A stretch of DNA of 64,000 bases from NCBI RefSeq assembly GCF_037042905.1, contig NC_087250.1, positions 26,352,001 through 26,416,000 of the forward strand, written 5' to 3'. The notes under the pieces were generated by a model. The model had not been told where the DNA came from. It ran no database searches and saw only the letters and a program-made list of their open reading frames with translations. Positions 4,900 through 64,000 of the stretch are shown here, one piece after another. The position numbers were made by a program, and so were the translations under genes. The DNA comes from Lytechinus pictus (lineage: Eukaryota). Numbering within the stretch: the first letter of the stretch is position 1; each line of letters opens with the position of its first letter.

Positions 4900-6840
4900 G
4901 TTACCATAGTAACAACGCTTCTCAGCCAATCAAAATCAAGGAAAGTTGTTAGATCTGAAAAATTATCGAGATAAATTTATATATTAAAACCCTCTCCCGC
5001 TTTCTCTTTGGGAACGAATATTTAATAGCGATTGAATTGATATTTTAAATAAAACATAAACCCTTTATAGCTAAACTCAATCTGTACAAAGTTGATTATT
5101 GTAAGAATAAATTCGGAGGATTTTTTTAAATATAAATGTCACATTTCTACATTAACACAACATATCTTAGACAATACCGACTTATAAACAACGTATTAGA
5201 GCAACATTTACAAACTAAACGCAGTATTTAATGAAAATGAAATAAGGAATTCAAATGAATTGAACGTAGTACAGCCTACTGTAACGGAATAATAATACAG
5301 GTATTAGTCTGGAGGACAGGCTAGAGAAAAGTTAGTAATGGCGTAAATACTCATATCTGAATGACACGCGCCTTAAAACCCAAGTTAACAACAACAACAA
5401 CAGGGCCACGGTGAACAACAGACCTGTTAGTCGGAATCGGACGTCAAGTGTACATTTATAAATAAAAGGTGGAATACCATTTGACATGGCGTGGTTTGTT
5501 TTCTAGAAGTTCATGAGTTTCTGAAAGGAGCTCAGGGGCCTGTTGCATGACGAGATGAGCGATACTTAGGAACGTCCTAAGACCATTCTTCCGAGATAGG
5601 AAGATTGGCGACAAATCAGCGCTTTCCGTTTCACGAAGGAAATGTTGTCTTTCAAGTCCGTACCGTGACATCATTTGATATCGATAGTATCGGAAAGATA
5701 TTTAGTCTTCATCGTCACCTGAACCTTTTATTTCTGAATAACGACTTTTCATATAAAACTGATATATGTCAATAAAAGGAGATCACATAATGTTTTATTT
5801 ATTACTGATTGTAGAATTGATGTATGGAGCTTACTTTATGAGGTAAAAAGAGAAAAAAAATTAAAAGATTCACAAACGAACTTTATAAAATCGATATTTT
5901 CATTATTTCCCTTATTTAGAACACGGTGTCCTTTTAGAGACACCTTTCATTGATATTTCAACGAAAGAGACCCTTGTCCGACATAAAAATGATTTAACTA
6001 AGTAATTTCGACATTGTATTAGTTTAATATTCTGAATTTTTATAGTATTTATAATGATAATTTGGCAAATTATGTGTTAAATGTTATTTACTGAGGTAAA
6101 ACTAGGGTTTGAATGGAGTAAACAAAATCAACAGTGTCTGATTGTATGAGACTAAAAAGGAAAATATGAGAGGCTGCGTGTGAAAAATCTATTTTTTTAT
6201 TTTTATTTGTCAGATAGAACGCCATAAATACAAATGTGAGTGGTTAGAGTATAACCATACCTCAGTTATATGATGAGTAACCGAAGAAAATGAAAATATG
6301 AAAATTGCTGCAAACATGTCCAAGTGGATAAAGTAATGCTTTGCAATAATAATTAAAACATAGAAAAATGTGTGAATCATCTACAATGGAAAAAAATATT
6401 CACGGAAATAATGCTAAAAATGACAACGATCATAAACTTTGGTCATATTTAAAGTTGATTACTTTATGGTAGTTGCAAAAGGGGCTAGGTCTACTCCAAG
6501 AATGATACCCTACCATGATAACATAAAATTGGGTATAAAAGAATTTTTAAAGATATTCTTTTCCGAAAAAAATATGTGTGGACCTAACCCCGTTTGCAAC
6601 TAAACTGAAATGGATGTAAACCCTTTTGAAAAAAGAAAACATTTTATTTTTTTTTTAAATTATAATTTTTTTTCTTTGCACTTTTAGTTCACTTTTTAAT
6701 AGGAATTTTATCTTTTCTTTGGTATCATCTTATAGAGCTACTAAAAATCTAAACTTTGAGATATAAAAATCAAATTTGATGAAAAATGGACCAAACCCCT
6801 TTTGCAAGTGAGCTCTTCAGTTGTAGTATTTTTTTATTCA

Positions 6841-10000: not shown

Positions 10001-10575
10001 ATTTAATTTATGTGTTGGCCATACGATGTGTAGCCGGGCAGCTCGCATATGACGTCACAAATCATATAATTGAAATTCTAATAACTATTTACTCTTTGAT
10101 GGATTTTTCTCTAACCTTCAGTAACCTTTTTTTTATCATTATTAATCTTGTGTTAGTTTTTACAATACTTCGTGATGAATTTTAATAAAATGGTGAAAAA
10201 AACATTCTTATTTTGTACCATTACTTTATTTTAAACATCTTATTAAGGGTTATAAAAAAGTTTTCTAGTAGGATTGACTAAAATAAAAAAAAACTTTTAA
10301 ACCTGCAAACGGAGGTCTCGACATAAAATCCCCCTCAAAGAAAAATATAATAAAAAATCAGCAAACATGCAAAACAAAAATGTTTATTGATCGTAACTAT
10401 TCTCAATTTAATATCATTGCAAGTCTGTCCTAACGCGCCGCATATCATACAGAGAGGGAGAAAGAGAGGGGGTGGGGGGGGGGGACTTATTGGTCAACTC
10501 AATATGAAACTTTTTTCAAAGTTCCATTCTATTTCTTTTTTAACACGTAGGATATCAGCAGGAATGCTAACTAAA

Positions 10576-15500: not shown

Positions 15501-15843
15501 TTTATTTAGGGCGGCTATTGTCGGGTACGCCCAAAAGGCGGCAAACACTCTCTTCCTTCTTAGCATTGACGAACTTCAAGTGTTTATTCTGATCAAGTTT
15601 ACTTTTTGGACCGGTGGCAGATACAAACTCTTTAACCCCCCCCCCAAAAAAAAAAAAAAAAAAAATATTCCCCAAGAATTGGGAGAAGGGAAACTCCCCC
15701 TTGAACATTGAGGCGGACACCCACCCCCCGTGATCGCCGCCTACGGCAGGGCGTGTGATAATCAATGTGTTAAGACGTTTTTTTATAGGCGTGATACTTC
15801 TATGGTTGCTAAAATGATATCATTGAGCTATGTTTTCCCCTTC

Positions 15844-15984
15844 CTAGATGGCATTCATGGCATCTGTTGTTGGTCCAGCATGTCCATTAATGGATTCGTT
15901 GTCTTGATCATTAACATGATCCAACTCATCTTTCTTGTTGTAGACCTCTCTCATTTCTTCCTGAACGACTGGTAATTTATCATC
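15844..15984 (-). CDS. SLC5 copy 1 terminal coding exon 15 (DDKLPVVQEE...DAMNAI*)
   Basis: cag acceptor, TAG stop at 15844-15846. Confidence 0.82.
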   Translation of the reverse strand, partial: DDKLPVVQEEMREVYNKKDELDHVNDQDNESINGHAGPTTDAMNAI

Positions 15985-18900: not shown

Positions 18901-21900
18901 GACTGGTATAATAGTTACATCTCATTTTTCTCCCAAACTTTGAGATCGAGCAGCCAGAACACGGCATATTTCTGTGTACAACGTCACGTGACTAACGTAT
19001 GATAGTTTCCGTTCCTATATAGACCCTTTTCATTTGAAACAATTAATACAGTCCAAATAAACTTAATTAACGCATTTAATGTTGAAAGTAACAATGTTAT
19101 TGTACTAATAAGCTTTGCCTATTGATATTAATAATATGGCTACAGTTTGAGGAAGCAAATATCAAGTCCGGAATTGATTTTGAGTTACAATAGGGTCTGC
19201 GTGAGTACACTATATACTGAAATTGAAGCTGAAACTGAAACTTTATTCTGTCGACCCCTTTCGGAGTATGAGAATATACACAGTTATACAAACATCAAAC
19301 ATTCATACATAGTATGCATACGTACATAAATACATACATAACAAAACGTGAATAAAAATAAAAAGCTATAACAACGTGGCAAAAAAAGATGAAGAAAGCC
19401 TTGAATGCAAAATATAATACTGTTCAACACATGAATAACAAAAAGAGATAGAAAAAGGATATAATAACAGATTAATATACAGGTATATACATTTGGTACT
19501 TATCTACGAAAATGTGTCATAATAATATTAACAAACTTGGCAAGCTTTGACAGTGTTTTGGGAATTTTAGGCTAGCATCGTCTGCTACGTAAACCAAATG
19601 AGCGAACATGACCGAAACTAACCATTATGAAGAAAAAAAAAACACGTGGCCCCTAAAAAATTAAAGGGGGTCAAATAAGATTAAATAACAACTTTAATTA
19701 CTCGTTCGATCCAAATAAAATGTCACTTGACATGCCCACGACCTATGAACAGAGCCTGCTGACATCAGGGGGGGGGGGTCATGAAAGGTGTCAGCAATGA
19801 CAAGTTGTCTTTCTCCGACCATAGCGAAAGTCAAAGCTTCTGAGCCAATCAAAACTGAGAATTTCACAAAAATTGTCAGCGATGACCTTTTAATCAGTGC
19901 CGAAGAGTTTCGTTTTTGGAGTACCAGTCAGTTGTTCTCAGCGCAACTCTATACAACTTGCAAGCTTTCGATTCTCATCGATCAATGTAAAAAAAAAAAA
20001 AAAAAAAAAAAACGGAGATGGTTGAAATGTTAAGGAATTACTAACTCTGGAACGGACGACAAAAGCTCCCACCAAAAGTAACTTCACAGCGCATCCTAAA
20101 AAGAGTTGTCGCTTTAATTTTTTATCACTTTGTATTGGCTAAAACAAGGAAGGGGAATCCCAAGAAAATAATTTATTGCAACAAAAAAATGTAGCTTATA
20201 CGAACCTTTGAATTACAACGATGTACGAATACAGCTAAGATAAAGACACCTAGGAACCCGCCAGAGATCACCCCGACCATGCTGACGGTAAACTGAAAAA
20301 AAACACACAGACACAAACAAATTCCATGCTTATGGCGGGCGTACGACGGATGTAAATAACTGAATTCGAGAAATTTTATGCGGCGGCCGCAATGTCGACA
20401 TACGGCGGATTCATTTTTTTTACAGGCCGTCGGGGTGGCAGAAAATTTATAACGCGGAGTTCTAACATTTCTTTTATATTTCTATGCAGTGGCGTACCGT
20501 GGGTCACAGCATTGGGGGGCACCAGCAAAAATGTTAAGTCACTTAGTGAGCGCGCGAAGCGCGCTCAGATGTCAGGTATACTGATAGAGACATTTTAAGG
20601 AAGCACTTGTAGTCATTTGTAATCATGAATAAAAAAAATACGCATCTCATCAATCAAATAATGCGAGCGCGAAGCGCGAGCTGAAAATTTTTTATATTCA
20701 GACCTAAAAAGGGACATTATAATCGACTTTGTAATCACGATACGTACCTGTCTCGCTAAACAATGCGAGCGCAAAGCGCGAGCCGAAATTTTTGTATACA
20801 TTGACCCCAAACAGGGCGATCTTAAGGACTATATTATAGGAATAATCCCTTAATAGTATACATATCTCACCGTAGTCATCTAATACCAATGCCAAGTGCT
20901 TGCTGATTTTGATAGAATTACATTTAAACATTTATGAAGCACTTGTACTCATTGTAATCATGAATAACATACGCATCTCACTAATCAAATATTGCGAGCG
21001 CGAAGCGCGAGCTGAAAATTTAGACCTGAAGAAGGGCATTCTATAGCTTGGTTGTAGGAATTCACTAAGACCATACGTATTTAACTAACCAAATGATGCG
21101 AGCGCGAAGCGCGAGCTTAAAATTTTTGATATTCAGATCAGAAAAAGGGACATTTTAAGGACTGATTTTAGGAATTCACGGAGAGCAGACATATCTCACC
21201 AATCCACTGATGCGAACGTAAATCACGGACAGGAAATATTTTATATTAAAGGAGAATGAAACCCTTGAAACCAGCTGAATCCATATAAAAGAGAAAAATC
21301 AAAGAAACATATTGTTGAAAGATTGAGGAAGATTGAATGAATAAACAGCAAGTTATGAGCATTTGAATATTGAGATCACTAATGCCATGTAGATCCTCCC
21401 ATTGGCAATGCGACCAAGATCTGTGATGTCACACACGTACAACTCCCTCATTACTTTAGTACTTATTTCACTTATATTCTCACTTTTATAGAGTCTATCA
21501 CAAGGTGAGGTGTTCTCTTTATGAGAGGACAAGTACAGAGGTTCACAACATTATATAATTGATTAATCGTTTGTCATATGATTAGAATGAGCAAAAAGAG
21601 ATGTTTTGAGGTATATTTTCAGTGTCCAAAACTGGACAACTCTCCCCTTTTGGACACTGAAAATGTACCCCAAAACATCTCTTTTTGCTCATTATAATCA
21701 TATGACAAACGATTCATCATTGGTATAATGTTGTGAAACCTCTGTACTTGTCCTCTCATAAAGAGAACACCTCACCTTGTGATAGACTCTATAAAAGTGA
21801 GAATATAAGTGAAATAATTACTAAAGTAATGAGGGAGTTGTACGTGTGTGACATCACAGATCTTGGTTGCATTGCCAATGGGAGGATCTACATGGCATTA

Positions 21901-24900
21901 GTGATCTCAATTTTTAAATGCTCATAACTTTCTTATTATTCATTCAATCTTCCTCAAACTTTCAACAATATGTTTCTTTGATTTTTCTCTTTGATATGGA
22001 TTCAGCTGGTTTCAAGGGTTTCATTCTCCTTTTAAGACCTTAACATGGGGCAATCACTTTAAGTAGTCATGAAAAAGAAGCATATGTCACTGCATAAAAC
22101 AATAATATATTTGGTTTATATTGACTTGAAACGGGAGTTTTTCGTACAACATGTTTATATATCTCTTTAAACGGACAATGCGAGCACCAGGAACAATGAC
22201 ATCATAGGCCCTGAGCAAATAAAGTTTCATAAAGTTAGGATAAAAAATTTTTCTATGTAACATAACATGATTATAATATAATATACCATTATAATTGATA
22301 ATAATTTCTTCTTTCCCACTACGGTTCCTCTTCCTTTCTCCCTCTTTTTCTCCTTTTCCCAGTTTTTTTTTTGTCAGCCGATTCGGGGGGGGGGGGGGGG
22401 CACGTGCCCCCCCCCCATGCCCCCCCCCCCCCCGTAGTTACGCCACTGTTTCTATGCTTGCCGTAGTAATTAGACCATCCGTAGCCATGGCGTAGAACAG
22501 ATCATGGTGGCAGTCCGTCGAGCGCACGGTGGCCATTCGGCTGCCCAGGGGAGTGTTTCATCAAGATTTTTGTCCGACAAGTCGTCAGATCTGACAACTT
22601 TCCTTGATTCTGATTGGCTGTGAGACAGTTTTACTATGGTAACTGTCGTATAAAATAAGATTTGTCGGATAAAACGTCTGACAAGTCCTTCATGAAACAG
22701 TCCCCTGGACTCGAATGGTTTCATGGATGAATCAGTGTGAATAGATTCGAATTACCCTAATCAAGTAAAATACATGAATATCATGTTTAGATATTCTCTA
22801 ACCCATTGGTAGGTGACTGTAAAACAGTACATCCATTTATTTTGTGCATTATAACTCCCTATGAAATCTTTTACTACAATTTCATTAGAAAATGGGGTAA
22901 AATAAACTTAAAATAAACATAAAAATCTCACTTCACTCTGAGTAGTCCACGTCCTGGACGATTGTTATTAGTGTGTTTTCGCCCAGCGTCGTACGACGCT
23001 ATCAACGACGTAGAACGATCTCTTGGTTCGTGCGTCCGTCGCGCTCAACTCTCGCTTGTAAGCAGTTTCGCAAATCGCTGATCGCGGCCGGATCGTTTTG
23101 AAGCTTTCAGCTATCAGTGCAGTGTAGTCAGAGTAGAGTACAACATGTGCATATGCACGCGATGGGCGAATGTTTACATCGGCTCAGCTTGCTCACTCTA
23201 CAAGCGATCTGATTGGCTGTTGACGGCTGTTGACAAATCCTACGTTCTAATGCGGACGCCCGCTAATTTGCGGAAGAACCGTCCGTGATTTGAGCTCAAG
23301 ATCGCTTGGGCCTCTGTTTCCATGGAAGTTGGCAATTTTTGCACACGACCCTTACGTTCTACGTCGTACGACGCTGGGCGAAAACCAGCTATTGATTGGG
23401 CAAACCCTATCGGACCGTACCCCGCGCGCACACATAACCAACACACACACGCCCTCCACTGATTCTAATACCCCCAGTGATTTACCTAACCCAGTGATTC
23501 ACCTTACCCACTGATTCACTTTCCCGACTATTCAGGGGGTGTGTGTACATGTATGCGTGTTATGTGGATGTAGTGTGTTATGTGTTTGGTAGTCGTATCG
23601 TACCAACTAACAACAGTCCATGAGGTGGACTTCTCTGAGAAGAGCTAGTGTGATTATGAAATTAGATTAGCTCTTTTGCATTTAGAGAGTACGTCGTAAA
23701 TTTAAAGGTGTGGCATATTGTGTACGGTTTGCAGCGTTTATTTACTTTATCACGTCACGGTACGCTATTACGTTTTGTGCACATTCGTAACCCCCCACCC
23801 TTTAATCAACGAAGTATTGGGTTATATAACCCAACTAATCGGTTAAATTCTACAAGCAAAATAAGTATCACAACCTAACGTTAACCAGATGAATGTAAAT
23901 TGGCATTGAGAACAGACTAACACCTTCGCACGAGTCGGTATATTAGACACGTTAGATTAGATCACGCATTTGTGTACGAAAGTACTCAAAACGTGATAGC
24001 ACACCATGATCTGAAAATGTGAGTAGGCCTAAACGTTGCAAGCCTATTAGTACTTTCTCCAAACCTGTAAGATTCCGGACTGCATGAAACTAATACAAAA
24101 TGAAAACCCAATCGCCAACATGCCGTACACAAGAGCTGTAATACAAAAGAGAAAAAATATGTATTTTAAAACTTTTTGTCTGGCTGTGCAAGAGTATTTA
24201 GCCAACAATTATTTAATGAGAAAGTCTTTACAATCAATGTTTAAATGCCAACATATTTTCCCCTCTAAACGAGGGATTTATTTTAAGGGCTGTTTAATTC
24301 CTGGTTAGAATAATATGCACAGTATATCACTAATGAAAAAAATTGGCACGATATTCATAAGGACAAGCAAATTTAATTTCTAATTGAGTTGGAAACTGCA
24401 TTACCAGTGGTATTCCTTTTTTGCGCCTTTAATATATATCATCTTTATTCGCCAAATAATATACATGTAACATATATGTGGCACTTCTAAAAAAAAAAAG
24501 AGAAAAAAAATTGTACACAATAAATCACAATTAATGAAATATAGGGAGAGAAGAAAGATTAAATTGAAGCTAAGAAATACATAGGAATTCAATCAACTGA
24601 CCCACTTCTTCCCTTGTTAACGTGTTGCAGATTCTTTCCTGATTTCTTACTGCTATCAGTTCTTTCAGAACATTCACATCCAGTTCTCTACAAGCCGGGA
24701 CATCACAGTCCTTACTCTTATTACATTTACTGAGAAAATATTGCACCTCATTTAAATTATCACAAAAAGTTGAAAAAGGGTTCCTTTTGGCATATTTCAA
24801 AACCATTCTTTTGAATCTCGCTCCAGTCTTCACAATTATGTTATTCAACTTTTGAAATCTATATCTTAAAGCATTCTCAAGAGGTTGACAATCAGACAGT

Positions 24901-27900
24901 AAAGCTACCAGATCACAATGAGTCATATTATTAATTCTCCAAAATTTTCTCAGAGCTTTCCTCCAACAGGTGCATTTGTTCAATACAGCTTTACTTCTTA
25001 ATTGCCACAAGCATGCTCCACAGAAACTACAACAATATTGTTTGAATTATAAACACTGCACTGATTATTTAATATGACCAAAATCAGATCTGAGAATATT
25101 GAAACTTTTCCAGAATTTAGCAGTAGCTGATGAAACCAAGCTATTCTTGTCAAAAGTTGAAATATGGTGACCTAAGTGAACCCCACTATTGATATTTGAC
25201 ACATTAGTATCATTAATAACAACAGAATATTCCCTTGAATTGTTGTCGCCACCAGTTGGAAAGACAAGAAATTGACTTTTAGATCCATTTAAAGTATTAT
25301 CAAAATCTGTGGCAAAGTTCTCACATATTTTTATCATGGTTTGTAAGCCTTTCTTTGTTGGTGACATAAGAGGTGATATCATCAGCATATGCTAAGTATC
25401 CCGCAAAATAATTACCAATTCTACAACCAATTATTCCCCAAATTGGCCTTTTTTGTATACAAAAATAAAGTTTACCTTTTCTGTTCATTACTTGTTTTCC
25501 TTTCTTTCTTTGCGCCCCCTTTTCCCTTTTTGCGCTCCCATGAAACTGGCGGGGCACGTGCCCCTCCCTAGATACGCCACTGCTCCTCACATAAGAAAAG
25601 TACTGTTTGTTCATATCACATTCAATAAAAGCGTGTACAACGTTGTCTTTAAACATGACAGTGCGGACAATATTTTTCGTCAGCAATACCCCCCCCCCCC
25701 CTATTTAAAAAGATTACTTCTAACGGGTACTAGTGAGTTGTATAAAAGTTTATTATTAAACTCTCGTAGTAAGCGAAGCTCACCTATGCATATCAAATTT
25801 CTTTTAAACACAGAAACCAGTAAATATCAGTCTGCAATATATTTTCAAACCAGATAAAAAAAGTTTACTACTAATTGCCACCATATTGATATATGTTTAG
25901 ATCTAGTACATTGAAATAAACTTAGCTTTGTGAAATCATGAAATCTTAGCTAAATACCAATAATTCTGATGATCACGAACACAAAAATGCATATGTGGGA
26001 CAGTGTATTATTAATATTTTTGTTTAGATTGTTCTTTGGGCCTGATGTTTCCATCATAAAATGATTAAAAGTGGCACATGACCGCCACGTAAAAAAAAAA
26101 TGATATAATTAAAAGTACAAGCTTTGATATCAAGCTAATTAAAAATGAATTAACACCTAAATATTTATATGTTGGTAGCTAAATGGTATGTGTTAGAGGG
26201 AGTGACTTCCACAGCCGAGGCGTCATTGGAATATATGAAGATTGATGAAGAGAAGTATTTGACTTTGGGACAATGACTCTGTAGGGGTGGGCAGCTTGGA
26301 AAATACCCGACATTTTATGGAATTCCGTGCCTTTTATTTCTGGGCAATTACATTTATTCTTACAATTAAACACTTCGGTAGTCATTTTATTGGATTCTGT
26401 TCGAAGTCATTTTGAGATCGTTACCACAATTTCCATTTATCTTTAACTGATGAAAACAAATATGAATATCCCATTTGCAATGCGGAATATAAATGTATAT
26501 ATACATGTATACATATATACATATGTATTTGTATACATATATAATATCCTCTTTTAGAGTAGTGCATTATGGGAAATGACAATCGTATGTACTCTACCTA
26601 ATATCTTGGCTACTCTGGCGTAGTTTCGCTCACTAATATTCGGCCATATTGCTTTCACGCCATCTTCTGCCGTGATAGCTGCTAGTGCATTTACTCCAGA
26701 CGATAGCGTGCTGCAGAAAGGGATAAGATCGAAATATTAAATGATTCATCTATGATTCATCTTTCTTCAATATTTATTTTTTGTCTTCAAAATTCTGATT
26801 TTTGTTAGTCCCTTGTTATCATCCTTCTACGGATAACGGGAGTAAAACAAGAACAATCTGAAATTAGACTATTCATTTTTGAAATATAGTTCCATTTTTT
26901 GTATACACAAGAAAATGTTTCAACTGGCGCAATTAATGGTCTCCGAAATAGTGCATTTTTTTTCGTGAGACGAAATGGTTGTCAGGTTGCTTCTCCCCTA
27001 ACCCTCAATCACTAATTGCCCGAGGGTTACAGGACATGGTATTATGAATAACCGTCAAAGAATACCGGTGCTATGAATTTCAAGAGTTTTTAATTTATCA
27101 TTTCATTCATCTTTTTGCTTTTTCTTTTCCTTTTTTTCCTTTAACTTGTTTTCTTTTCCCTTTTTTACGTTGAATGTAAAGTGCAAAATATCCTTGTCCT
27201 TTTATATACTTGTCCATTTTTATGCAAATAAAGAGAATTGAATTGTGTATCAGTTAGCCTACCTCAGAGATGCACTGACAACTGATGCTAGAAATACACC
27301 AGGCAATCCGGGAATTTCGGCAAACATCTCCATCACAAAGAGAGGCATTATCTAAAAAAAAAAATATATATATAACGAAATTCGATTCCGGAAAGTAGTT
27401 TATGGGGAAAATGAAATTTCAATATAAGAGGTGGCAATGAACCGAGATGCAGATCAGCTCTAAATGATAGGAACTGAACTTAGACCTACGGATAAAGATG
27501 TAAACAAGTGTATCCAGCGGGCATTTTATGTAACGATTTTTGTAAGTGTTAAGGAGATCTTACAGCTTTTTCACCAAAGAGAACCTATCTACCCGATAGT
27601 TTATATTAAGCATCATATACCTGGTCACGTGACGAGACGACCTTCGATTTCCATGGGTCGCAGTTTACGTAGTAGGCGTACATAACCAATCCAGAGAAGA
27701 TGCATAGGGAAAGTATTATCCCCTTTAAGAGGACCGCGAGGAACAAGGCCCTACAGACATGAAAAGAAAATTAAAATTATTTCGAAACAAGAAAACAGAT
27801 GTTGTTTTGTATGTTAACTATTTACTGTTTTGAGCTTATGCCTGGAAATAATTTCAACAATTTGTTTTTCTATTCGGCATTTATATTGCATAATATTTTA

Positions 27901-30900
27901 ATATACTCATCAAGCCAAATATTTTAGTAAACAATACAATAATACATTGAGCAGTGATTTATTCTTTATTATGATTTTTATTTATTTGTTGCTGTCTTGT
28001 AATTTCATATCTTTTTTATTGATTTTTTATTTATCTATCTTTATATTTATTCATTCATCTATTTTAGTGGGGATTTGAAACATTTCTATGCACGGCGTTG
28101 GAAGAAAAAAAAAATGCGCTGGAAATACCACTACCTCACACTTACCGTGTTTACATGTGATCGGCTTTTGGTTCAGAACCGCGAGCCGATGCGAATCGGC
28201 TTTTGGGTTTATCTTGCACCGCGTTTACACGCTGCATCGGCTCGCGGTTCAGAATCGGCTCGCGTGTCAAAAACCTGAAATGATCCGCGCACCAACAGTA
28301 TACGTCATAATAAAGACAACGCAGGATCCATGCGCTTACAAGTACGTCATAATGGTAAAGTAAATGAAATGCGCTTGAATTGCCGAGGCAGAATCGGCTT
28401 TCTGTTTACACGTAGAAAAAAGCCGAATATGCATCGGCTAGCGGTTCTGAACCTGCTACTTTGGTGGTGCAAAATTGCCGATTCTGCACCGAGAGCCGAT
28501 GCAAGTTAATCGCGTTTACACGCAATGAAAAAGCCGATTCTGCATCGGCTCGCAGTTCTGAACCGCGAGCCGATGTAGCGTGTAAATTGTTGCCCATACG
28601 CCTTGTCTCACCTGCACAATGTTTGGAAGTTACTTACTGTATGGCCCTGGGCTTGGTTCCACAAGCAATAAGGCGTTGAACCTCTATTTGGTTTGGTCTT
28701 GCCTCGGTAATGGTACCTCCTATCAACATAGTCCACAGTGTATATAGGATCCTCGGATCGGGGTTCCCCCTAAACAACAGTTAAACGAAAATTTAGAACG
28801 GCAGCCTACAGTGCATATCCTATTTTTTAAGCACAATGTTGGCTAAATAAATTAAAACGATCGTTACAATCGCTTGTTCTGGGGAACAAAAGAGACGGTT
28901 GCAATTAGAATAATAGACATTTGAAGTTAACCCATCCCACTGCAACAATAATTGGATATATTTATTTTTATTTATTTATTTTATTGAAATATATTTTTTC
29001 AGGAAAAACACAAGATCAGTATAAAAACACTGTTTTACATCAGATTCCTAAAGGGTTAAAAAGTTACATCAAAATTCAAAAGTCAAAACTGATATAAGAA
29101 TACGACCAGCTGCATATAATAAGCTAAAAATATATGAATGACAATGGCAGTTCGTAATAACGCAATTTATTAATATGAATAGATGGTTAATTCAATACAA
29201 CATATATATTTGTTGCTGAACACTATACATAAATGATTAATATTAAAAGAAATTCACTCAATAATGAATAAACCAAAAATAATGGTTGACAATGATAATG
29301 ATAGCTATTAGATGATGATAATAGTAATAATGATGATAATAATTATCAAAATAATATGTTTAATGGCAACAAATAATCATATCAAATTCATGAGAAAATA
29401 TGTGATTAGATAAACCTATGGCAATAAATAATCGAATTTAAGGGTAAAAAAGGTGGTTGCTTGATTATATCAATTAATAAATGAACGCAATTAATGGATG
29501 TACTTACAGAGATAAATGAATGCAAATGATTAAATAAGTCGATCATGTAATAACACAAATTAATATGTTAATCATTTCAAATGGGGAGTTGGTAAATTTG
29601 GCCCAAAAAAATCTTTACTCTAGAAACTGGATCCGATCGCCCTGTTCAGCAATTTGCCAAACTTTGTCGAGACCGCCGACCACCATGGTCCCTTTGATGA
29701 TTAGGGCGACGACACCGACGATCATGATGATTCCTTGGAGGGTGTCTGTCCACACGACTGCCTTCAAACCACCCTGTACACATACAAAATGTATATATAT
29801 ATATATATATATATATTGTGAAAGAAATGGATGAAGAGAACAATGGTAGGCGTAGCTTAAATCAAGGTTCCCCGGAGCTATCTGCCCTTTTTTGGAAAAA
29901 AAATGGTAATGCCGAAAAAAATGTCTCTGCCGGGAATCGAACCCGGGCCCTGTTACACCCACAAATGTAATAATCGCCCACAAATGTAATAACGCCCACA
30001 AATGTAATAACACTTTACCCACAAATGTAATAATTTCACCCACAAATGTAATAATGCACTTAACCCACAAATGTAATAATTTTTGATCGCCCACAAATGT
30101 AATAATGACTTTACCCACATTTTGAAGGGATTTTTGGCGAATCCGTTCTAAACTAACATCCGATAGGAATGCGTTCAAATAGCACAAAAGTGCAAAGTCT
30201 TTTTTCCATATAAGTCCAAACTAAGGTACGATAATGATATTGCAGTGGAATAAAAATAAGAATCGAGCTTAGTCTTTTCTCCAGACCCAATTAGAACTGG
30301 TGGAATAAATGTCTTTGTTGTTGTTTTAACTTATACGGCGCGTATTGTGAATATATGCGCCAAGAGTAAATTGAGAATCAAGCGTAGTCTTTTCTCGAGA
30401 CCCGGTTACTTAAAACTAAAAACTAAAACCCTTTACCCACAAATGTAATAATTTTACCCACAAATGTAATAATGCACTTTACCCACAAATGTAATAATGT
30501 TTGATCGCCCACAAATCTAATAATGACTTTACCCACAAATGTTATAAATTTGAAGGGATTTTTGGCGAATCTGTTCGAAAGTAAAACCCTATAGTAATGC
30601 GTTCACATAGCTCAAAGTCACAGTCTTTTTTCTCCCGACCCGGTTATGTAAAACATCTTAACAATTTAGCGTAGTCTTTCCTCCAGACCCAATATTTCAA
30701 ATAACAAATAAAAAATAATAAACAATAATAAAAAAAAAGACCCCATTATTTTATTAATTTTGAACAAAATGTAAAAAGAACAAAAACAGACCCTGCAATC
30801 TTTTCAACATTGAATAGCGTGTGTGTGTGTGTGTATTTGAGTTTTGTCAGACGTGTATCAATCAGATATGATTATTTACGTCTGGGACAGACCTTTAACG

Positions 30901-33900
30901 TCACCATCCGAAAGACGTGACCAGGATTCGAACCTCTGCATCAATTTGTAACTTCCCCACGTAGCTTGGATTACAAGCGCACGCCACAACGCCCAGCATC
31001 GAAATATGGTGTAGTCTTTGTTCCAGCCCTGGTTATTTCAAAATAGCAAATCATAAAGAACAATATCAACAAAGACCCCACAATCTCATTGATGTTGAAT
31101 AACTTGAAAATATAGCGTAGACTTTCTTCAAGACCCAGTTATTTTAAAATAATAAATCATAAAAAAGATATATAATAATAATAAAACAAAGGCCCCACAA
31201 TCTATTGATGTTGAATAACTTGTCGTTGTTGTTATCTTTGGTTTTGAGGCGCGTACCATTCAGATATGAATATTCACATGGAAATATAGCGTAGTCTTCC
31301 CTCCAGACCCACTTATTTCAAAATTACAAATAATTTTAAAGAGTCAACAAGTAACAAAGACCCCCACTATCTTAATAATGTTAAATAACATGGAAATATA
31401 GCGTAGTCTTTCATCCAGACCCAGATCTTTCAAATAACAAATGATGAATAATAATAATAAATAAATAATAAGAAGAAAAACAAACAAAGAACCACGATCC
31501 TATTTATGTTGAATAACATGGAAATATAGCGTAGTCCTTCCTCCAGACCCAGTTATAAAAATCATTAAAAACACAACAACAACAACAACAAAACAAAGAC
31601 CCTGCAATGCTATCAACATTGAATAACATGGAAATATGGTGTAATCTTTGCTCCAGACCCAGTTATTCAAAATAGGAAATTATAAGAAACAATAAAAACA
31701 AACAAACAATATTTACAAAGACCGCACAATATCATTGATGTAGAATAACGTTGTTGTTGTTGTTATCTTGGGTTTTAAGGCGTGTATCATTCAGATATGA
31801 TTATTTACGCCTATGATTAATTTGCCGTTTGTGGTATGCGTTATCACAAGGTTTTTATAGTTTGGAAGATGCTGGGGTCTAAGTTTAAAGATTAATGTTT
31901 CGCTCAATTTGTATTTTTAAGAGAACTGGGTGTGGGGTAAAGACAACACTCTTAACCCAAGCATTTTAACTGGGTTTAATTTTGAAGATTGGTCTTAGCT
32001 TTCATTTTTTGTTCCATATTTATTTATCTTTTAAAAAACCGGGTCTAGACAAAAGACTAAGCATAATACTCGTGTTATTCCACAGGAATAAGAATATGAC
32101 AAAGTCTCATGTTTTTAAGATTGTTTGAATTATTTTTCAAATGACTGGCTCTGGAATAATGACAACGCTCTAAACATGTGCTTTTCTACATAGTCTCAAT
32201 CTGGAGGATTGTTGGTTCTTAGATTCGTTGTTGGGGGTTGGGTTTTATTGTTTTTTTATTCTTGAAATAAATGTGTCAGGAGGAAAGTCTACAATCGATC
32301 TTCATGTTATTCCACAGTAATTAGATTATTGGGTATTCGTTTTAGAATATTTGTAAAAACTATTTTATTTTTTTCAAATAATAACCAAGTCTGGAGAAAG
32401 GATGTTTGCTTTACCCATGCATTATTACAATGTTTTGTAGGGGTCTTAGTATCATTGAAAAAAAAAACTGGGTGTGGGGTAAAGACATATTTTTTTACTG
32501 GGTGTAACTTTTGAAGATTGGTCTTAGATTTGAAGTTTTTTTTTATTCATTTTGTAAATAACCGGGTCTGGAGGAAAGAGTACGTTTTAAAACTCGTGTT
32601 ATTCCACAAAAATTAGAATATGATAGGGTCTTACGTTAGAATATTTTTTTTCGTAAGTTTTTTTATGATTAGGTCTGGAATAAAGACAACGCTCTGAACC
32701 TTTTTAAAACAGGTTCTTAGGTTGAAAGATTGTTTGGTCTTAGATTTTGAATTTTTTAATTATTACTATTAGCGTAAAAAAAAGGGTTTGGCTGAAAGAA
32801 TATGCTATATGTCCATGTTATCCAGCATTAGTACGATTATGGGGTCTTTGTTTTTTGTGTTTTTTGTATTGTAATTTATAATTTTGGAATAACAGGGTTT
32901 GGAGGAAAGACTAAGCTCGATTTTCATTTTTATTCCACTGGAATATCGTTATGGTATCTTAGTTTGGACTTATATTATGATTTTTGAAATAACCGGGTCT
33001 GGAAAAAAAAGACTTTGGACTTATATTAAAATTTTTGAAACAACTGGGTCTGGAAAAAATACTTTGCACTTTTGTACTATATGAACACAATACTATAGGG
33101 TTTTAGTTTTTAGTTTTAAGTAACCGGGTCTGGAGAAAAGACTACGCTTGATTTTTAATTTACTCTTAGCGCATATATACACAGTACGCGCCGTATAAGT
33201 TAAAACAACAACAAAGACATTTATTCCACCAGTTTTAATTAACTGGGTCTGAAGACAAGACTAAGCTCGATTCACATTTTTATTCCACTGGAATATCATT
33301 ATCGTATCTTAGTTTAGACTTATATAATAATTTTTTAAACAACAGGGTCTGTAAAAAAGACTTTGGACTTATATTAGAAGTTTTAAATTAACCGGGTCTG
33401 GAAAAAAGACTTTTCACTTTTGTGCTATATGAACGCATTACTTTAGGATTTTAGTTTAGAACGGATTCGCCAAAAATCCCTTCAAAATTATTAAATTTGT
33501 TGGTAAAGTCATTATTACATTTGTGGGTGAAATTATTACATTTGTGGGTAAATTGTTATTACATTTGTGGGCGTTATTACATTTGTGGGTGCAACAGGCC
33601 CCCAGCTTTGAACGCCGGTGCCTTAACCACTAGACCACAGAGACGGGTTAGTGGCTAGGGCGACCCCGATCCGACTGATCATCAGATAAACAGATTTTCG
33701 ACACTAATACCAATTATAATTTCCTTTGTCGGATGTAGGTGGGTTTTGAACAATGACAAGCCGCCATTGTTATATTCATCCATTCCTTTCACAAAATATT
33801 TAAAGGACAAGTCCACCCCAACAAAAAGTTTGAATAAAAAGACAAAAATCCAACTAGCATAACACTGAAAATTTCATCAAAATCGGATGTAAAATAAGAA

Positions 33901-36900
33901 AGTTATGACATTTTAAAGTTTCGCTTAATTTCACAAAACAGTTCTATTCACATCCTGGCTGGTATGCAAATGAAGAAACTATGACGTCATCCACTCACTA
34001 TTTCTTTTGTATTTCATTATACGAAATATGAAATATTCTAATTTTCTCCTCATTGTCAAGTGAAACAACGATTAATTCCTCCCTGAACATGTGGAATTAG
34101 ATTGTTTAATACTATATGGTCCAGTCAAGTTGGTCCTTATTGTTAAATGTTTACAAAATAAAATATTGTACCATTCAAACAATAAAAAACAAAAGAAATA
34201 GTGAGTGACGGACATCATCGATTGAGTCACCTAGTTGTACATATCACTGTTTTGTGAAAAATAAGCAAAACTTTAAAATGTCATAATTTTCTTATTTTAC
34301 ATCCGATTTTGATGAAATTTTCAGCACTATACTAGTTTGATTTTTCTCTATTTATTTAAGTCAGCATTTTCCTGGGGTGGACTTGACCTTTAAATAAAAG
34401 AGTTGCCAAAGCTGTTATACATGTCTAATTTTACACATTTATATACATATATATATATGATTGGGAATCATTCTTTAAAGCGTAATACCGATCTGTGTAA
34501 TACACTACTCAAAAAAAGTTAAGGACCACTTTTTAATGTGTGTATACAATTTTCAAACCGGGTGTTGTATTTCTAGAAATACCCGAATATGGCTGTCTTG
34601 AATCTCCTCAAACACCCTGTAACAATTTCACACATGGGTGGTTTCAGTTGTTGCATGATGTCTCTCGCATTATTGCATATCCTGAAAAGTGGGCCCATTG
34701 TGAAGTGGTACAAATGTGGATTCAAATGCATTTTCTGTCTTTAGTCTCTACAATCAACAAATTGCTGACAACAGCAATGCCAAGATACAGCTGTCCAGGA
34801 TGCCATCAAACACAATGAAATCAATTTCACACATGCAGTTCTTTCATGTCTCTTGCATCATTGCAATGTGCCCGTACAGAAGTGGCTTCCAAAGCATTTT
34901 CTGTCTTTAGTCTCTACAATCAACAACTTGCTGACAATAGCAATGCCAAGATACAGCTGTCCAGAATGCCATCAAACACAATGACATCAATTTCACACAT
35001 GCAGTTCTTTCATGTATCTTGCATCATTGCAATGTGCCCGTACAAAAGTGGCTTCCAAAGCATTTTCTGTCTTTGGTCTCTACAATCAACAACTTGCTGA
35101 CAATAGCAATGCCAAGATACAGCTGTCCAGAATGCCTTCAAACACAATGACATCAATTTCACACATGCAGTTCTTTCATGATGTCTCTGGCATCATTGCA
35201 GTGGGCCATAAGACAAGTGTCTTCCAAAGCATTTTCCGTCTTTAGTCTGTACAATCAACAACTTGCCTACAACAGCAATGCCAATACACCACCTAAGTGA
35301 AACAGATGTAGCCAGAGCCCTAGGGATGCTGGAAGCTGGCCTCAGTCAGCGAAGAGTAGCCAGAATGATGGGCGTGTCACACAGTGTCATTAGCAGAGCA
35401 AATCAAAGACACCGAGAGACAGGGCTATACTCCGAGAGACCCCGCAGTGGCCGACCAGTTTCGACAACCCCTAGAGATGATCGCTACTTGACGAATCTCA
35501 GCCTCCGCAACCGCTTTCACAGTGCACGCCGCCTCAACAATGACTTCGCTGCAGCAACTGGATTGATTGTTTCCACTCAAACAATCCGTAACCGACTTCA
35601 CAGAGCCAATATGCATGCCAGACGGCCAGCTCAGTGTGTCCCACTCACCCCTGCTCACAGAAGAATTCGTCTCAACTGGGCCCGGGAGCATGTCAGATGG
35701 ACCAGACAGCAATGGCGTAGAGTTCTGTTCACAGATGAGAGCAGATTTTCCCTTGACCACAATGATGGACGTTCGAGAGTCTGGAGGCGACCAGGAGAGA
35801 GATTTGCAGACCCCTGTATTGCAGAACATGACCGTTATGGGGGAGGCAGCGTCATGGTGTGGGGAGGCATCACCTACGCCAACCGTACTCGTCTCTACGT
35901 GGTCCCAGGGGGAGCAATGACAGGAGTGAGGTACAGGGATGAGGTCCTTGAACCTATAGTGGTGCCATTTGCAGAAAATGTGGGACAAAACATCATTTTC
36001 ATGGATGACAATGCCCGTGCCCACCGAGCTAGGGTGGTGACCGAGTTCCTTGAGGGCCAGGGGATTGAGCGTATGGAGTGGCCAGCGAGGTCCCCGGACT
36101 TAAACCCGATAGAGCACGTCTGGGACATGATGGGGAGGAGTCTCGACCAGCTCGAAGCCCATCCACTTGGACTGCAGCAGCTGGGTGTGGCTCTGGAGGC
36201 TGCATGGGATGCACTGGACGTCAGAGACATCAATCGCCTCATCAGCTCCATGAGACAGCGCTGTGAAGCCGTTATTGCTGCAGGAGGTGGTCACACTCGT
36301 TACTGAACTGCCTGAAAGACACTCAGACATTCGTTTTTACCACTTCATGTCGGTAGCTGATACCCCTCGGGGCCCACTTTTCAGGATGTGCAGTGATGCG
36401 AGAGACATTGTGCAACAACTGAAACCACCCATGCGTGAAATTGATTACAGCGTGTTTAAGGACATTTAGGACAGTTGTACTGAGGTATTTCCAGAAATAA
36501 AACACCTTGTATAAAATCTTTATGTACGTTTTAAAAAGTGGTCCTTAACTTTTTTTGAGTAGTGTATAATAAATTTGGGGCGCCATAGTCTAGTTGCTAC
36601 GATTTTCGTTTTTCAATCAGAGGGACGTGGGTTCGAATCCCAGCCATGGCGTGTTTTCCTTCAGCAAGAAATTCATCCACACTGTGTTGCACTCAACCCA
36701 GGTGAGATGAATTGGTACCCGGCAGGATTAATTCCTTTAATGCATGCTAGAGCTAAACCCGGGGTAATAAAAATAAAAGAGATTAAAATCCCTTTTGATA
36801 TAACATGTACCATGTGTTTGACCTTTACTTTTTCACACAACTTTCTCATTTCCCTCTTTTTCAAGAGCATTCAACACATCCTTTTCATGAGAAAAGTTCA

Positions 36901-39900
36901 GTTTTCATCATGATGATCATATTGATCTCAATAAACATGGTAATTGTATTGGTAAGCGTGCAAATCAGAGACATATCACCTAATTCGTCCTCATGACGAA
37001 TACAAATTATAGTTAATATATATATTTTTTTTGCAACACTCCGCAAATTACTCTTATTTATTTGTGAAATACTCCTGGATGCTTACCACTGATGTATAAA
37101 ATATACACACTACTCCAGTCGATAGCATACATGTCCACATATCAAATCCAGTAACTATGGCAACCAAATGAAAAAAATAAAATAAAAGGGAAATTAATGG
37201 AAATAACACGTTGGATTTTTTTTTTGTGGGGGGGGTGTGGAGTCGTGAAATGTGCAAACGCCGGGATATGTGCAAACAACGGTATATGTGCAAAATTTCG
37301 CCGGGATTTGTACAAACAACGGAATTTGTGCAAACGCCACGCCGGGAAATGTGCAAATCTGTCAAAATTTATCAACGGCATCTGTTCAAACGTGACGACG
37401 GGATATGTGCAAATGAACAATTTTCACGGGAAAAGTGCAAACCTCTGGGATATGTGCATATCACTGCATTTATCCATATAAAGGCTATTTCTCATGAAAT
37501 GTTTCAGTCATAAAATTACTGTTAAAAATGAGAAACATGCCTGCATAAGGTAGAAGCTACAATGACATCGGCAATGAAACGCTTTTCACAGAGGCGGCGG
37601 GGGGGGGGGGGGGCACCAACCTTAAATTGAAGACCCACTATCGTTTGGAATAACATGGATGTAGAGTGTAGTCTTTTAATGCTCCAGACCCGGTCATTTA
37701 ATCATTTGAAGATCCTTCTGAACTAAGATCCTGTACTAAAGCATACATAAGGAGCATAGCCATTCAAAAATAATAAAAAAAAAACTGCAACACCTCACCG
37801 TCTACCAAATTAAGACCTTGTAGAAATGAATATAGAATGTAGTCTTTACCCTAGACCTTGTTGTATCAATAAAAAAAAAAAAAATTAATACCTCATCGTC
37901 TAATTCCTATCGAATAAGTTGTTGTTGCTGTTGTTGTTTTAGCTTATACGGCGCGTGTCATTCAGTAGTGAATATTTGCGCCAAGAAAACCACATCCACC
38001 GAGCCGGATTCGAACCAGCGACATAAGGTTAATCATCATTCATCTACAGTCCTCCGCTCTACCAACTGAGCTATCGGTGGTTACTAGGTTTAAAGTGTAG
38101 TTTTTGCTCCAGACCGGGTGATTAAACAAATTCAAAACTATTTAAGCCCCGCCATCTTCCACTACTAAGGCTCTGTTATGAAGAACGTGTATATAACGTA
38201 TTCTCAATTCTCCAGACCCGTTTATTTAAACAAATTTTCAAGACCCCACAGTCTCATTCCTGTGAAAAAGATGGATATAAAGCGTTGTGTTTTCTCCAGA
38301 CCTTTGATTAAAAAACCTTCAGAATTAAGACCCAAGACTAAGACTCCGTTATAAAGCAAGGGTACATATCGTAGTCTTTACTCCAGACCCGTTTAAAAAA
38401 ATTATGTTATAATCTAAAAAAATAAGACCCTGTAAGAAAGCATGGATATAAGAGCACAGTCTTTACCCCAGACGCTGTTATTAAAAAAATTAGGAGATCT
38501 TCAATTTGACGACCCCACCGTCTCATATCTGTGGGAAAAAATGGATATAGAGTATAGTCTTTACTCCAAACCTGGTGATTAAAAAAAAACTTAAATAGTA
38601 AGACCCCATCATCTTCCAAACTAATAGTCTATAAGTATAACAAAGCACGGGTACCTATAGCATAGCCTTTACTCCATATCCATTTATTAAAAAACTACAC
38701 TGTACACCCGCTGTACAATTACGCTGTATACCCATGTGCTACATTACAGGTTCTTAGTATTGAAGATGACGGGATTGAAGTTTCGAAGATTCTTGATTTT
38801 GTTTTTCAAATGACTGGGTCTGGAGAAAATAATAACTCTATATCCATATGCTTGATGACATGGCAATGGTTTAGAAGATGGTGAGGTTTAAATTGTAAAG
38901 TTTATTTCTCTTTTTAACCACCGGGTTTTGAGTAAAGACTAGGCTTAGCTAGTCCAGGTATAGCGTTAATCCTGTTGTTTGGAAGAATATATGGCCAAGA
39001 CTGAGTATTAAAAAGTAGACTAATAACCTTCATCTTGTAGGGTAAGGTCGCATTGGGTCTGGAAAAGGAGACTACCAGCATCGGTCGGCAGAGCAAAATT
39101 GATAGGGGTGGGGAGGGCACAGCGAAAAAGGGAACTTCCTCTTTTGAAAAGGGCACTTGAAACAAAAAACTTTTTTAAAAACAAAATAGCATAATGTACC
39201 CTAGTAGGGTAATGAGCAAAATGATTGAGTGGGGCAAACATGGCGTGTGGGGCAAAAATTATTTAAAGCTGCGAGCGAGCGAGCAAAATTTTGAAACTTT
39301 AATGAAAAAAAAAACATTTTTGATAGATTTTGACATAGAGAACTATCATATTTCACCACTTTTCTTTCCTTTTCTTCTTTTCTTTTTCTTGGTATTGAAA
39401 ACTTTTGGGGTCCATGGAACGAGGTCCATTTCTTAAGGGGGCAAGTGCCCCCCCCCCCTCTCCCTCTGCTCAGATGCCCCTGCATAAAAGAAAGGACGCT
39501 AATTGCAAATACATATACCTTATATTAGCAAATTGGACATTTGAACAAACCAGAAGAGAAGGGGCATTTATCAGAATATTCATATGGGGCACTTGATCAA
39601 AGGTGAAAATGTACACACTACAGAAGAAGAATTTCACTCTGAAAAGGGGCAACTTAACCCTATCTAGGTCGGGGTATTTTTGGAATTCATATGGCCGGGG
39701 GAGGGGGGCCTCCCAGGCCCCCCTCCCCCCCCCCCCCCCTTGAGATCTCGGCCGTCGACCGCGCAATTGCACCGAAAATTGGCACGCATGTTGTCTGGGA
39801 TATAATCTACAAAATTGTATAGTAATTTTTTTCATGCAAATTGTTATTACGTAATAATGCTAATTTATGCGTAATTAGTATGCAAAATCATACTTTTTCC

Positions 39901-42248
39901 ACTAACTCCGTAAATAAAGCTCCAAATGTTCTAATTTTTGGCATAGAAACCCTTTGTGATGTTCTTAGCAAGTGTACATGAAAAAATCGTGATATCAGAT
40001 CAATTTCTTATGTATGATATTGTTTTTTTGCAATTTCTTATATGTATTTCTTTGTTTTTTGAACTTTTGTTTTTCATTGTTTTTTCAATGAAATTCGTTG
40101 GGGACTCTTCTAAGATCATAAACAGCATAAAATACATACATTTAGGCGTGCAAAACTAAAAATAATCATACATTTATGATTTTTGGTTGAAAACACAATT
40201 TACATTGACTTTGTACACGAAATCACGTTTTTGAGCACTTACGTAACATTGCGTAACTTCGGAACCGCGTACCCGGGTGACGCAAAATTGGTCTCAAAAG
40301 GTGCGGAAGACTTAAAAGTAAAAATTCAGCGAGCAGCGCGGTAAAAAAAAATTTGCGCGACAAAAATATCGCGCGACTCGTTGAGGGGGGAGGGGGGCCT
40401 CCGAGGCCCCCCCCTCCGGCCTAGATAGGGTTAAAGGGGCGAGAGGAACATTTTAAAAGGATTTTTATTATTTAAATGTGCACTTTTAGAAGGGATAAGA
40501 ACGCGAAATAAGGAAAACGGGCAATGGCAGGGCATGTAAAGAGCGGTTTTAAGGAATGGAAACTTATCTGATACGAGAATGGGCACTTATATTTATAAAA
40601 TGGTAAAGGGGCACACTTTAACACATAAAACAGGTCCTTCTAAGATGAAAGGGGCAAAGTTCTTGGGTTATAGTTGTTGTAAAATCGAGGTGTATGAATT
40701 GCAACCTAAAAATATTTCATTTAGAGAGTAAAGTGCATCGCATTTGTGGGTATATAGTTCAAAATTAATGCCTCTTGTTGGTAAAGTGCGCTAGTATGAC
40801 ATGATTGTGTGGGAAAATATTTTTATATACGTTAGTGAGTACAGTTTTTTTACACATGTGGCTGATATTACACAAGCTGGCGTCACTTTGGGTGTGTTAA
40901 AAGAGATAGGAAACAATGTCTTGTTTGAATGTTCATAGATTCATAAAAAAATAATATCAAATGGCATAGTAATCAAGACATTTTGGGTTTATAATTAAAT
41001 TTTAAAGAAATTCGACAACTTCTGATGAAATCTGGAAATGAAATCAACAGATCAAGTTCAATGTGTGTATCAGTGGAAATCATGCTTGCCTCTCCCACCC
41101 CCTTTAATAATTGCCCCATGCAGTGTTCGAAACAGTACTAAATGTCCCTTTAAGGTGACACGACATATACTCCTGCGAAAATTGCGACAATTAATATCTC
41201 AGAAGGCATAGGATTAGTGTTAGGATTGTGATCGAGTTTTTGTTTCAGAATATTGTCATGATTACGATTAGGGTGCATTTAGTTTTTGAGGTTAGCTTTT
41301 ATGTTTCGCTTAATGTTTAGAATTTCCATCGGAGCAATTGTCGCCAGAGCAAATGTCCACTAAGCCTGGTGCCCCCCCCCCCCCCCCCCCACTGCCTCTC
41401 TGAAAAGCGTTTCATTGCCGATGACACTAGCTGTAGCTTCTCCATTATGCAGGCATGTTTCTCATTTTAACAGTAATGTTATGAGACATTTCATGAGAAA
41501 TATCCTTAATATGGATAAAAACAGTAATTTGCACATACCCCGGAGGTTTGCACTTTTCCCGTGCAAATTGTTCATTAGCACATATCCCGTCGTCACGTTT
41601 GAACAGATGCCGTTGATAAATTTTGACAGATTTGCACATTTCCCAGCGTGGCGTTTGCACAAATTCCGTTGTTTGCACAAATCCCGGCGAAATTTTGGAC
41701 ATATACCGTCGTTTGCACATATCCCGGCGTTTGCACATATCACGGCTCCACAGGGGGCTAATGATTATTTGCTAGATATTTTTCCCCTTTTTACATTGAA
41801 ACTAAAATGTTTTGAGGGGGTAATTACTTATTTAGCTAGATGTTTGGCAACATATACATTGCGCCATCCAAATAATTGCATTATTAAATTGGGTCTTAAT
41901 CACACGACTATACTACAAACATTAATGCATTATGGGTAAGGCACCTGGCAAGTTTTCAGGAGTTGATTATTGTTTATTTTGAGTAGTGATGTACAAGGCC
42001 TTCAGTTGGAATTTGCTTTAAATTGAGAGGTGTGCAGTTTAAGACATAAGCCCACCAAGAAATGAAGAAAACATACCTGCATTCAACGCTATTGCAGGTG
42101 TGTAGACCACAGATCCCAAATAGAAGAGCTGTACCGTGACAAGTATGGTAAGGCGAAAATCAAAATGAGCGTATGATTACACAATAGTATTGATGATCTT
42201 ACGAACAAAGTGAAATATAAAGAGGGAAATGGAAAAATAATAACTCTT

Positions 42249-49071: not shown

Positions 49072-49647
49072 AGGGATGCTCCGGGCAGTAAAATTTGAAG
49101 ATACAAATGCTAATTTTTTTAATCAAAATCAGAAACAAATAACGAAGTTATTGCATTTTAAAGATTTGCACTTTTCCGGTGAAACAGTTCTAGCATATAT
49201 TAATGAATATTCATTAGGTGGGCTGATGATGTCATATCCCCATTTGTTTTTTTGTATTTTATTATATGAATTTGGGTTTATTCAAAATGTATCTACCAAG
49301 AAATAAAACAGTTCGATTGACAACTGATTAAGTGCATTAGATATTCATCGCTGCAATTTATTTCGTCATAATGGAGACACATCATTGACACATTTATGAA
49401 AAAATAAAATAATTATGATTTCATGTAATAACATGAGAAAAAGGAAAGTAAGGATGTGACATCATCAGCCCATGTGATGAATATTCATGAAGGCATGCCT
49501 AAAACTATTCAAACGGAATAATGCAAATATTTAGAATTCATTAACTTTGTTAATTGTTATTCGATTTTGATGAAATTTTCAGCATTTTGCTTAACGAATT
49601 TTTACTGTATTTATTTAGATATAGATATCTTCATCCTGGAGCTCCCT
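49072..49647. mobile_element. Degenerate Kolobok-like MITE
   Basis: AGGGATGCTCCGGG ... CCTGGAGCTCCCT-TTAA; internal inverted GGGCTGATGATGTCA / TGACATCATCAGCCC. Confidence 0.65.
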
Positions 49648-54400: not shown

Positions 54401-54560
54401 GGGAAGGGAAGCTCCCACTTGAACATTGAGGCGGACACCTACCCCCCGTGATCGCCGCCTACGGCAGGGCGTGTGATAATCAATGTGTTAAGACGTTTTT
54501 TATAGGCGTGATACTTCTATGGTTGCTAAAATGATATCATTGAGCTATGTTTTCCCCTTC

Positions 54561-63912: not shown

Positions 63913-64000
63913 CTACAGACATGAAAAGAAAATTAAAATTATTTCGAAACAAGAAAACAGATGTTGTTTTGTATGTTAACTATTTACTGTTTTGAGCTTA

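Follow-up and report, generated by a model that had tools for sequence, protein, structure and literature searches.

Hairpin-tailed retroposons share a fixed-register hot spot in the repeated unit of foldback DNA transposons of Lytechinus pictus

Crocodilian SINEU elements, which are short interspersed elements (SINEs), and long interspersed elements (LINEs) of the Tx1-Mar type insert into the DNA transposon Mariner-N4_AMi, and the article that describes them regards a family as target-specific when more than 20% of its flanks are the target repeat (Kojima, 2015; PMC4494074; here and below, statements about cited articles refer to their accessible portions). In Xenopus, Tx1L within Tx1D is likewise a non-LTR element (one lacking long terminal repeats) that targets a DNA transposon site (PMC4494074). 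This article deals with a comparable situation in 64 kb of Lytechinus pictus DNA (36.5% GC), the whole of which is called the window, where six retroposon insertions share one hairpin tail and five of them lie at a fixed register in the repeated unit of two foldback DNA transposons, hosts 1 and 2 (Table 1). The novelty lies in this hot spot of fixed register. By analogy, SINEU/Tx1-Mar is the closest precedent, and we do not claim membership.

Table 1. Positions of the tail copies, their hosts and related sites in the window (HMM, profile hidden Markov model; CM, covariance model; PWM, position weight matrix).
Feature	Positions	Strand	Remarks
Solo quasi-palindromic core TAGTCTG-N5-CAGGCTA	5305..5323	+	matches core of the host units; lies 16 nt before the 5340 stem; host-unit PWM rank 10 of 111,594 outside positions
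Headless tail: hairpin + TAAAACCCAAG + (AAC)n	5340..5401	+	HMM, CM
Host 1, non-coding foldback DNA transposon	29951..33596		TGT..ACA at its ends; duplication of 5 bp, GGCCC; arms built from units of 110-130 nt
Headless tail in left arm of host 1	30311..30368	-	seems fixed in host family; depth like adjoining host sequence
Mirror of 30311-30368 in right arm	33161..33218	+	same event, tail 93% identical
SINE	30818..30997	-	7SL, tRNA, Deu, tail, (AC)n
5'-truncated tail, cut within stem	31220..31275	-	2-nt duplication (AC)
Empty host unit, example: AATAAC ^ ATGGAAATATAGCG + core TAGTCTT..CCAGACCC	31378..31422	+	
Tail + 27-28 nt upstream sequence, centre of host 1	31750..31839	-	contigs span it in three runs
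Host 2, distinct TGT..ACA foldback element	37236..41752		5-bp duplication GGGGG; related units at 37625-39075
Pre-tRNA-Tyr(GTA) + tail	37919..38083	-	tRNA and T4-run scans

The tail is a hairpin of about 55 nt followed by (AAC)n or (AC)n, found seven times in the window by profile HMM and CM with filters off. The seven copies score 42.7-78.7 bits with the CM, against 15.1 for the next match; the model was built from six of the seven, and the remaining one (31228-31283) was recovered though outside it. Since the two arms of host 1 hold mirror copies of a single event (30311-30368 and 33161-33218), the seven copies amount to six events, and all six inserts listed in a sequence-only reading of the window are present near the places it gave, with the two models in agreement. 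Pairwise likeness of the tails is 60-95%; the (AAC)n type with TAAAACCCAAG is found at 5340, 31750 and 31220, the (AC)n type at 30818 only, and a GTATAAG type at 30311 and 37919. What that reading took for a simple stem around a loop folds as a two-part hairpin, made of a basal GC stem of 5-6 bp, an internal loop and an apical stem of 4-6 bp. This fold is kept in all five intact independent tails (z-scores -1.2 to -3.8); the truncated tail and the worn mirror tail fold no better than shuffles. The stem sequences are as first described and do change on both sides, but to a modest extent: this occurs in 3 of 11 pairs, and the covariation score is reached by 8 of 500 shuffles, which for a set of six related sequences is not a probability. 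Pairing is 95% at the true alignment vs 20-53% in slid controls. The tail thus fits a recognised RNA structure, with few independent changes and a covariation that is real but thin.

Only two of the six events carry an RNA polymerase III (Pol III) head, the other four being headless. The insert at 30818-30997 starts with the 5' part of the 7SL Alu domain (30954-30997; Rfam Metazoa_SRP, 26.6 bits, E 2.4e-05, short of the gathering score of 70); the match is limited to model positions 1-44, and the 3' 7SL segment of a full Alu domain is absent. It continues with a tRNA 3' half whose B box lies at 30924-30934, then with some 35 nt (about 30884-30918) that by eye resemble the start of the Deu domain in the alignment of PMC7245038 (Fig. 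S4), the remaining Deu sequence being absent. No T4 run occurs within this insert. The second head, at 37995-38080, is an unspliced pre-tRNA-Tyr(GTA) with a 13-nt intron and three extra 5' nucleotides, called at the relaxed threshold only and not at default (Rfam tRNA, 53.7 bits), and linked to the tail by a T4 run that could also pair inside the tail hairpin. Pol III tends to terminate at T4. For this reason, and because the intron is retained, 37919-38083 looks more likely to be a template switch onto pre-tRNA than a SINE. The 7SL-like head and the tRNA-Tyr copy had both been recognised from the letters alone; the "several chimeric SINEs" announced with them come down to one evident SINE family, a chimera-like tRNA-Tyr copy and four headless events.

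Parts of the window are contained in public runs labelled echinoderm metagenome. Evidence from beyond the window comes from a single alignment of public contigs and reads onto 30250-31900, which covers 4 of 24 runs, among them X1, X7 and X10; X10 is of DNA type, and 1,949 of its 8,764 aligned contigs are at least 99% alike. Summed contig depth, which serves as a ratio and not as a copy number, reaches 109k in the SINE head (at 30976) vs 20-50 for single contigs and falls to 1.9k at 31030; over the SINE body and tail it is 7-10 times that of the head (0.8-1.1M vs 109k). Loose flanks are carried by 52 and 62 X10 contigs at the two ends of this SINE, loose ends at 30921-30934 correspond to other heads joined to the same body, and head-to-tail pairs of the 7SL SINE (30996 / 30823-30825) occur in X10 with 5 and 10 letters between. 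The 30818-30997 insert is thus a dispersed Pol III SINE, and it has an empty site, represented by the joint 30815>30995 in X7 and X10.

Read on the insert strand, empty units consist of the core, 14 nt and GTTATTC. The five in-host events share one orientation, and the 3' junction of each falls at that point, 14-15 nt from the end of the core. Their 5' junctions lie 14-17 nt from the core, except at 31750, where the 5' side adjoins the corresponding half-site in the other arm. On the plus strand GAATA[A/G] precedes each of the five, just as had been reported for these minus-strand inserts, and target duplications measure 0-2 nt in the four scorable cases. The copy at 5340 has a 5' end uncertain by at most 16 nt, and a target duplication of at least 6 nt was not found there. 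The chance of hitting the register is 0.011 per insert (31 cores in 4,059 bp, 3-nt window, one orientation), or post hoc about 2e-8 for four repeats; that of finding five of six events within about 4 kb is 6e-6 to 2e-5, in a window itself selected for this. At the 3' junctions (31213-31230, 31743-31760, 37912-37930) the AATAAC end of the target resembles the (AAC)n tail in the sense of a match, not of pairing, which makes the junction a short palindrome. This is the opposite of the L1 priming geometry, in which poly(A) meets a T-tract.

The inserts are independent: they differ in heads, truncation points and tails, occupy two host families and have empty sites, so that the idea of separate insertions at one register is borne out. 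Besides the empty site of the SINE, that of the 31220 insert is seen in X10 and X1 as the joint 31203>31276, the two sides of which stand 15 letters apart. Three further insert-to-host-unit junctions are found among the 15 of 66 X10 joints shown. One, 30337>31386, joins a variant truncated tail through 13 known letters with the register kept and a 4-nt duplication-like TAAC; in the other two, 30873>31390 and 30994>31282, the intervening letters are not known, and the register is compatible, not proven. Carriage inside a DNA transposon, also proposed earlier, agrees with the family-level depth over the 30316/33167 and 31750 tails. The summed X10 depth over the 30316 tail is 179k, vs 133k and 259k alongside, and X1, X7 and X10 all have contigs that run across the 31750 centre. 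Because the tail depth equals that of the host and contigs span the centre, both inserts are most likely parts of the host family that have spread together with it.

The outer repeats of the two hosts differ and their inner units of about 130 nt are related, the conserved part being GGGTCTGGAGGAAAGACTA, with a core conserved as GTCTGG-N5-AGACTA. Both elements have TGT..ACA ends and 5-bp duplications. Transposons of the Ginger2/TDD type have TGT..ACA ends, a 4-5 bp duplication and an integrase-like transposase. No transposase was found in either host by a Pfam scan, which covered 145 of the 158 frames listed for window positions 1-52,000 (13 frames in tandem-repeat stretches were omitted, and the part beyond 51,900, mostly duplicate, was unscanned). 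An Academ origin of the core is conceivable. Host 1 splits a tRNA-like SINE (29920-29950 and 33597-33700). The insert at its centre has inverted target half-sites at both sides (GAATAAC in the left arm, GATAAC in the right arm), and the centre looks as though both arms had been cut at a common register and what lay between them replaced. In host 2, at 39057-39480, the right arm stops about 15 nt past a core and gives way to unrelated sequence, which makes a further junction at a similar distance from the core but lacking the tail.

How did such different retroposons come to occupy one position of the unit? Likely because one LINE prefers that site: on balance we favour, with some reserve, a single LINE lineage that recognises the tail, prefers the unit site and made all six insertions, some of which then multiplied with the host transposon. 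Its endonuclease would nick the plus strand of the unit after GAATAAC, with a second nick 0-4 nt away, and reverse transcription would start at the (AAC)n or (AC)n end. The products would include 5'-truncated ends, a Pol III SINE made of 7SL, tRNA B box and Deu start, and a template-switch chimera with pre-tRNA. The hexamer would contribute to the hot spot, the core 14-15 nt away would probably add to it, and inserts landing in a master copy of the transposon would have multiplied along with it.

Several observations weigh against this account. The window was chosen since it seemed clustered, which is a selection effect, and the depth comparisons yield ratios only. The 5340 event has no GAATA or GTTATTC flank, so the shared insertion motif of the sequence-only reading stands for the five in-host events and fails there; nor does the motif alone explain the concentration in units. 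No LINE with this tail was found in the window, either with the CM or by the Pfam scan, which shows no reverse transcriptase (RT) domain in its 145 frames, nor in two metagenome, two genome and four viral scans of collections without this genome or its relatives. Finally, 52 loose flanks on the 5' side of the 7SL head give a consensus without the core, with an agreement of 0.41 vs 0.37-0.40 for random AT-rich sequence, and most copies of the 7SL SINE therefore sit elsewhere. By simulation, a fixed-register core would be visible in such a consensus in 99.9% of cases if present in 50% of the flanks, in 79% if in 30% and in 36% if in 20%. Measured as the share of flanks that are target repeat, the preference reaches 5/6 for the events in the window, and for the 7SL SINE a share of at least 30% is unlikely from the 52-flank consensus. 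The consensus flanks on the insert strand, ..CTATAA preceding the head and ATAGTTATAATC following the tail, may be a faint echo of the GTTAT site, as a hint only. The preference is thus partial, the unit being a hot spot and not an obligate target, and the core as obligate target was dropped in view of the contig alignment.

A first alternative gives the leading role to the core. A protein bound to GTCTG-N5-(C/A)AGACTA, whether a host factor or the foldback transposase, would tether the LINE complex, and insertion would follow 14-16 nt away regardless of local sequence. At 5340 a core does stand at the right distance and on the right side without GTTATTC, and among 111,594 outside positions only 10 reach such a score (about 6e-4 for a 7-nt window). 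The hexamer also leaves much to explain: units contain 24 GAATA[AG] sites and the remainder about 94, so that by itself the hexamer would place about 20% of events in units and not 5/6 (binomial, about 0.002), and only 17 of the 59 AATA[AG][ACG] sites in units are at the register. Against this, the case rests on the single outside site at 5340, whose 5' junction is uncertain, part of its 16 nt being similar to what lies upstream of the stem at 31750; 16 of 24 GAATA[AG] unit sites are at the register, so that a local motif could explain the in-host register (0.67^5 = 0.13); and the core is not visible in the 52-flank consensus, where most simulations would show it if present in 50% or 30% of the flanks. 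We consider it unlikely that the core acts in this way. The broader proposition is also doubtful, namely that a short palindromic motif is a landing signal beside which a LINE and its passengers insert, 14-16 nt off, in one orientation and nearly without duplication, via a bound protein or transposase breaks, and that foldback transposons repeating the motif collect and carry retroposons.

Another nuclease might also have made the cuts, for example the foldback transposase beside its repeated binding site, with the LINE RT using the free ends without its own endonuclease and the inserts patching the breaks. The duplications of 0-2 nt, the many short 5'-truncated pieces and the 31750 insert, by which two inverted half-sites are linked in the middle of host 1, would all agree with patching; every tail, however, is 3'-complete and points in the same direction, as usual for target-primed insertion, the head-to-tail SINE pairs separated by 5 and 10 letters argue the same way, and no host transposase is known here, all of which makes such patching improbable. 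That these are ordinary dispersed SINE and LINE pieces with an AT-rich bias, clustered by chance and by host amplification of one or two inserts, seems just as improbable: two events are indeed host-amplified and the loose flanks are near-random at both SINE ends (0.39, 0.41), but varied heads, truncations and tails meet at one register in two host families, with empty sites and more junctions.

As to the partner of the favoured LINE-based account, three matches from the collection scans (L001-L003) were chance matches in other sequence. A decayed LINE ORF2 (open reading frame 2) end with a YADD motif at about 24430-25460 (-), with a copy near 60590-61620, has an AATAAA-type 3' end, a different tail. 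The link of the tail with I/Nimb suggested by the sequence-only reading is a lead only, and mollusc SINEs with look-alike tails presumably use Nimb. The duplications seen here (0-2 nt, and none of at least 6 nt at 5340) differ from the 8-14 bp of those mollusc elements, among them the Chlamys MESC SINEs with their look-alike end (PMC4758252), which counts against Nimb. Mobilisation by RTE as in hagfish was set aside, the elements having neither the ~17-bp duplication nor the RTE tail (PMC7245038), as was an L2-type tail, since the end of the L2-related BivaCORE-SINE2 fits less well by eye than that of BivaV-SINE3 (PMC4824008). In one published table, the partners of sea-urchin SINEs are of CR1/L2 type (PMC3747384).

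The Pfam matches in the window are to TRIM-type RING, SSF and Tc1. They correspond to a RING/TRIM-type reading frame (10354-12507, +; 717 aa without introns, with a RING finger, TRIM-like), to exons of a sodium:solute symporter, for which a homologue search gave relatives at about 50%, and to an intact Tc1 transposase. The latter (35212-36306, intact-looking) belongs to a Tc1/mariner element at 34500-36567, whose 5' part holds 3.5 tandem copies of a 166-bp unit. A large recent duplication relates 13260-27838 to 51987-64000 in blocks 93-99% identical, probably a second copy of the symporter region, and elements with inverted repeats like those of miniature inverted-repeat transposable elements lie at 21248-22032, 33797-34396, 39655-40435 and 49118-49575.

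What may be retained is that a retroposon lineage uses the repeated unit of a DNA transposon as a preferred site, and that, with both a 7SL part and an unspliced pre-tRNA attached to this tail, a single site allows stages in the birth of SINEs to be compared. Should the partner LINE be found, fixed-register and nearly blunt insertion would become a testable model for the origin of target preference. A literature search, with Repbase and most subscription journals outside its coverage, found nothing on this tail, on the hot spot or on an echinoderm 7SL SINE, and the crocodilian and Xenopus precedents limit the surprise of the concept.

Among described systems, SINEU/Tx1-Mar elements share with the window swapped small-RNA heads and a fixed position and orientation in a non-autonomous DNA transposon, a preference that is partial in some families (13-23%), duplications that are short, absent or replaced by truncation, and tandem insertions; hitch-hiking, considered there, is apparently real for two inserts here (PMC4494074). 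They differ in that SINEU has U1/U2 heads, whereas the window has 7SL and tRNA heads and a tail made of a hairpin and (AAC)n (PMC4494074). The window host, unlike Mariner-N4, is a TGT..ACA foldback with a repeated unit, and each copy therefore offers many sites. For Xenopus Tx1L the autonomous element is known, and SINE diversity is not described in the accessible part of PMC4494074. Chimeras of the U6-L1 type, in which template switching fuses a full small RNA to a LINE 3' end (PMC4494074), fit 37919-38083, except that the RNA is here a pre-tRNA with an intron and the LINE is other than L1. The tails most like those at 5340 and 31750, by eye and without an alignment score, are those of BivaV-SINE1/3, BivaMD, BivaMeta, HalSINE1 and LitSINE1, with a GC-rich 5-bp stem, about 25 AT-rich nt, TAAAACCCAA and A/C repeats (Nishihara, 2016; PMC4824008); their stem sequence differs from that of the window, and the accessible text does not name their partner LINE. 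The hagfish SINE1-1_EBu also has a 7SL-derived head on a chimeric SINE and an (AAC)n end (Kojima, 2020; PMC7245038). It has both Alu-domain halves, however, as do hagfish and mammalian SINE1 elements in keeping both 7SL segments, together with an RTE tail, duplications of ~17 bp and no strong target preference (PMC7245038), whereas the SINE of the window has only positions 1-44 of 7SL, followed by the B box of a tRNA and the start of Deu, and its duplication is 0-2 nt.

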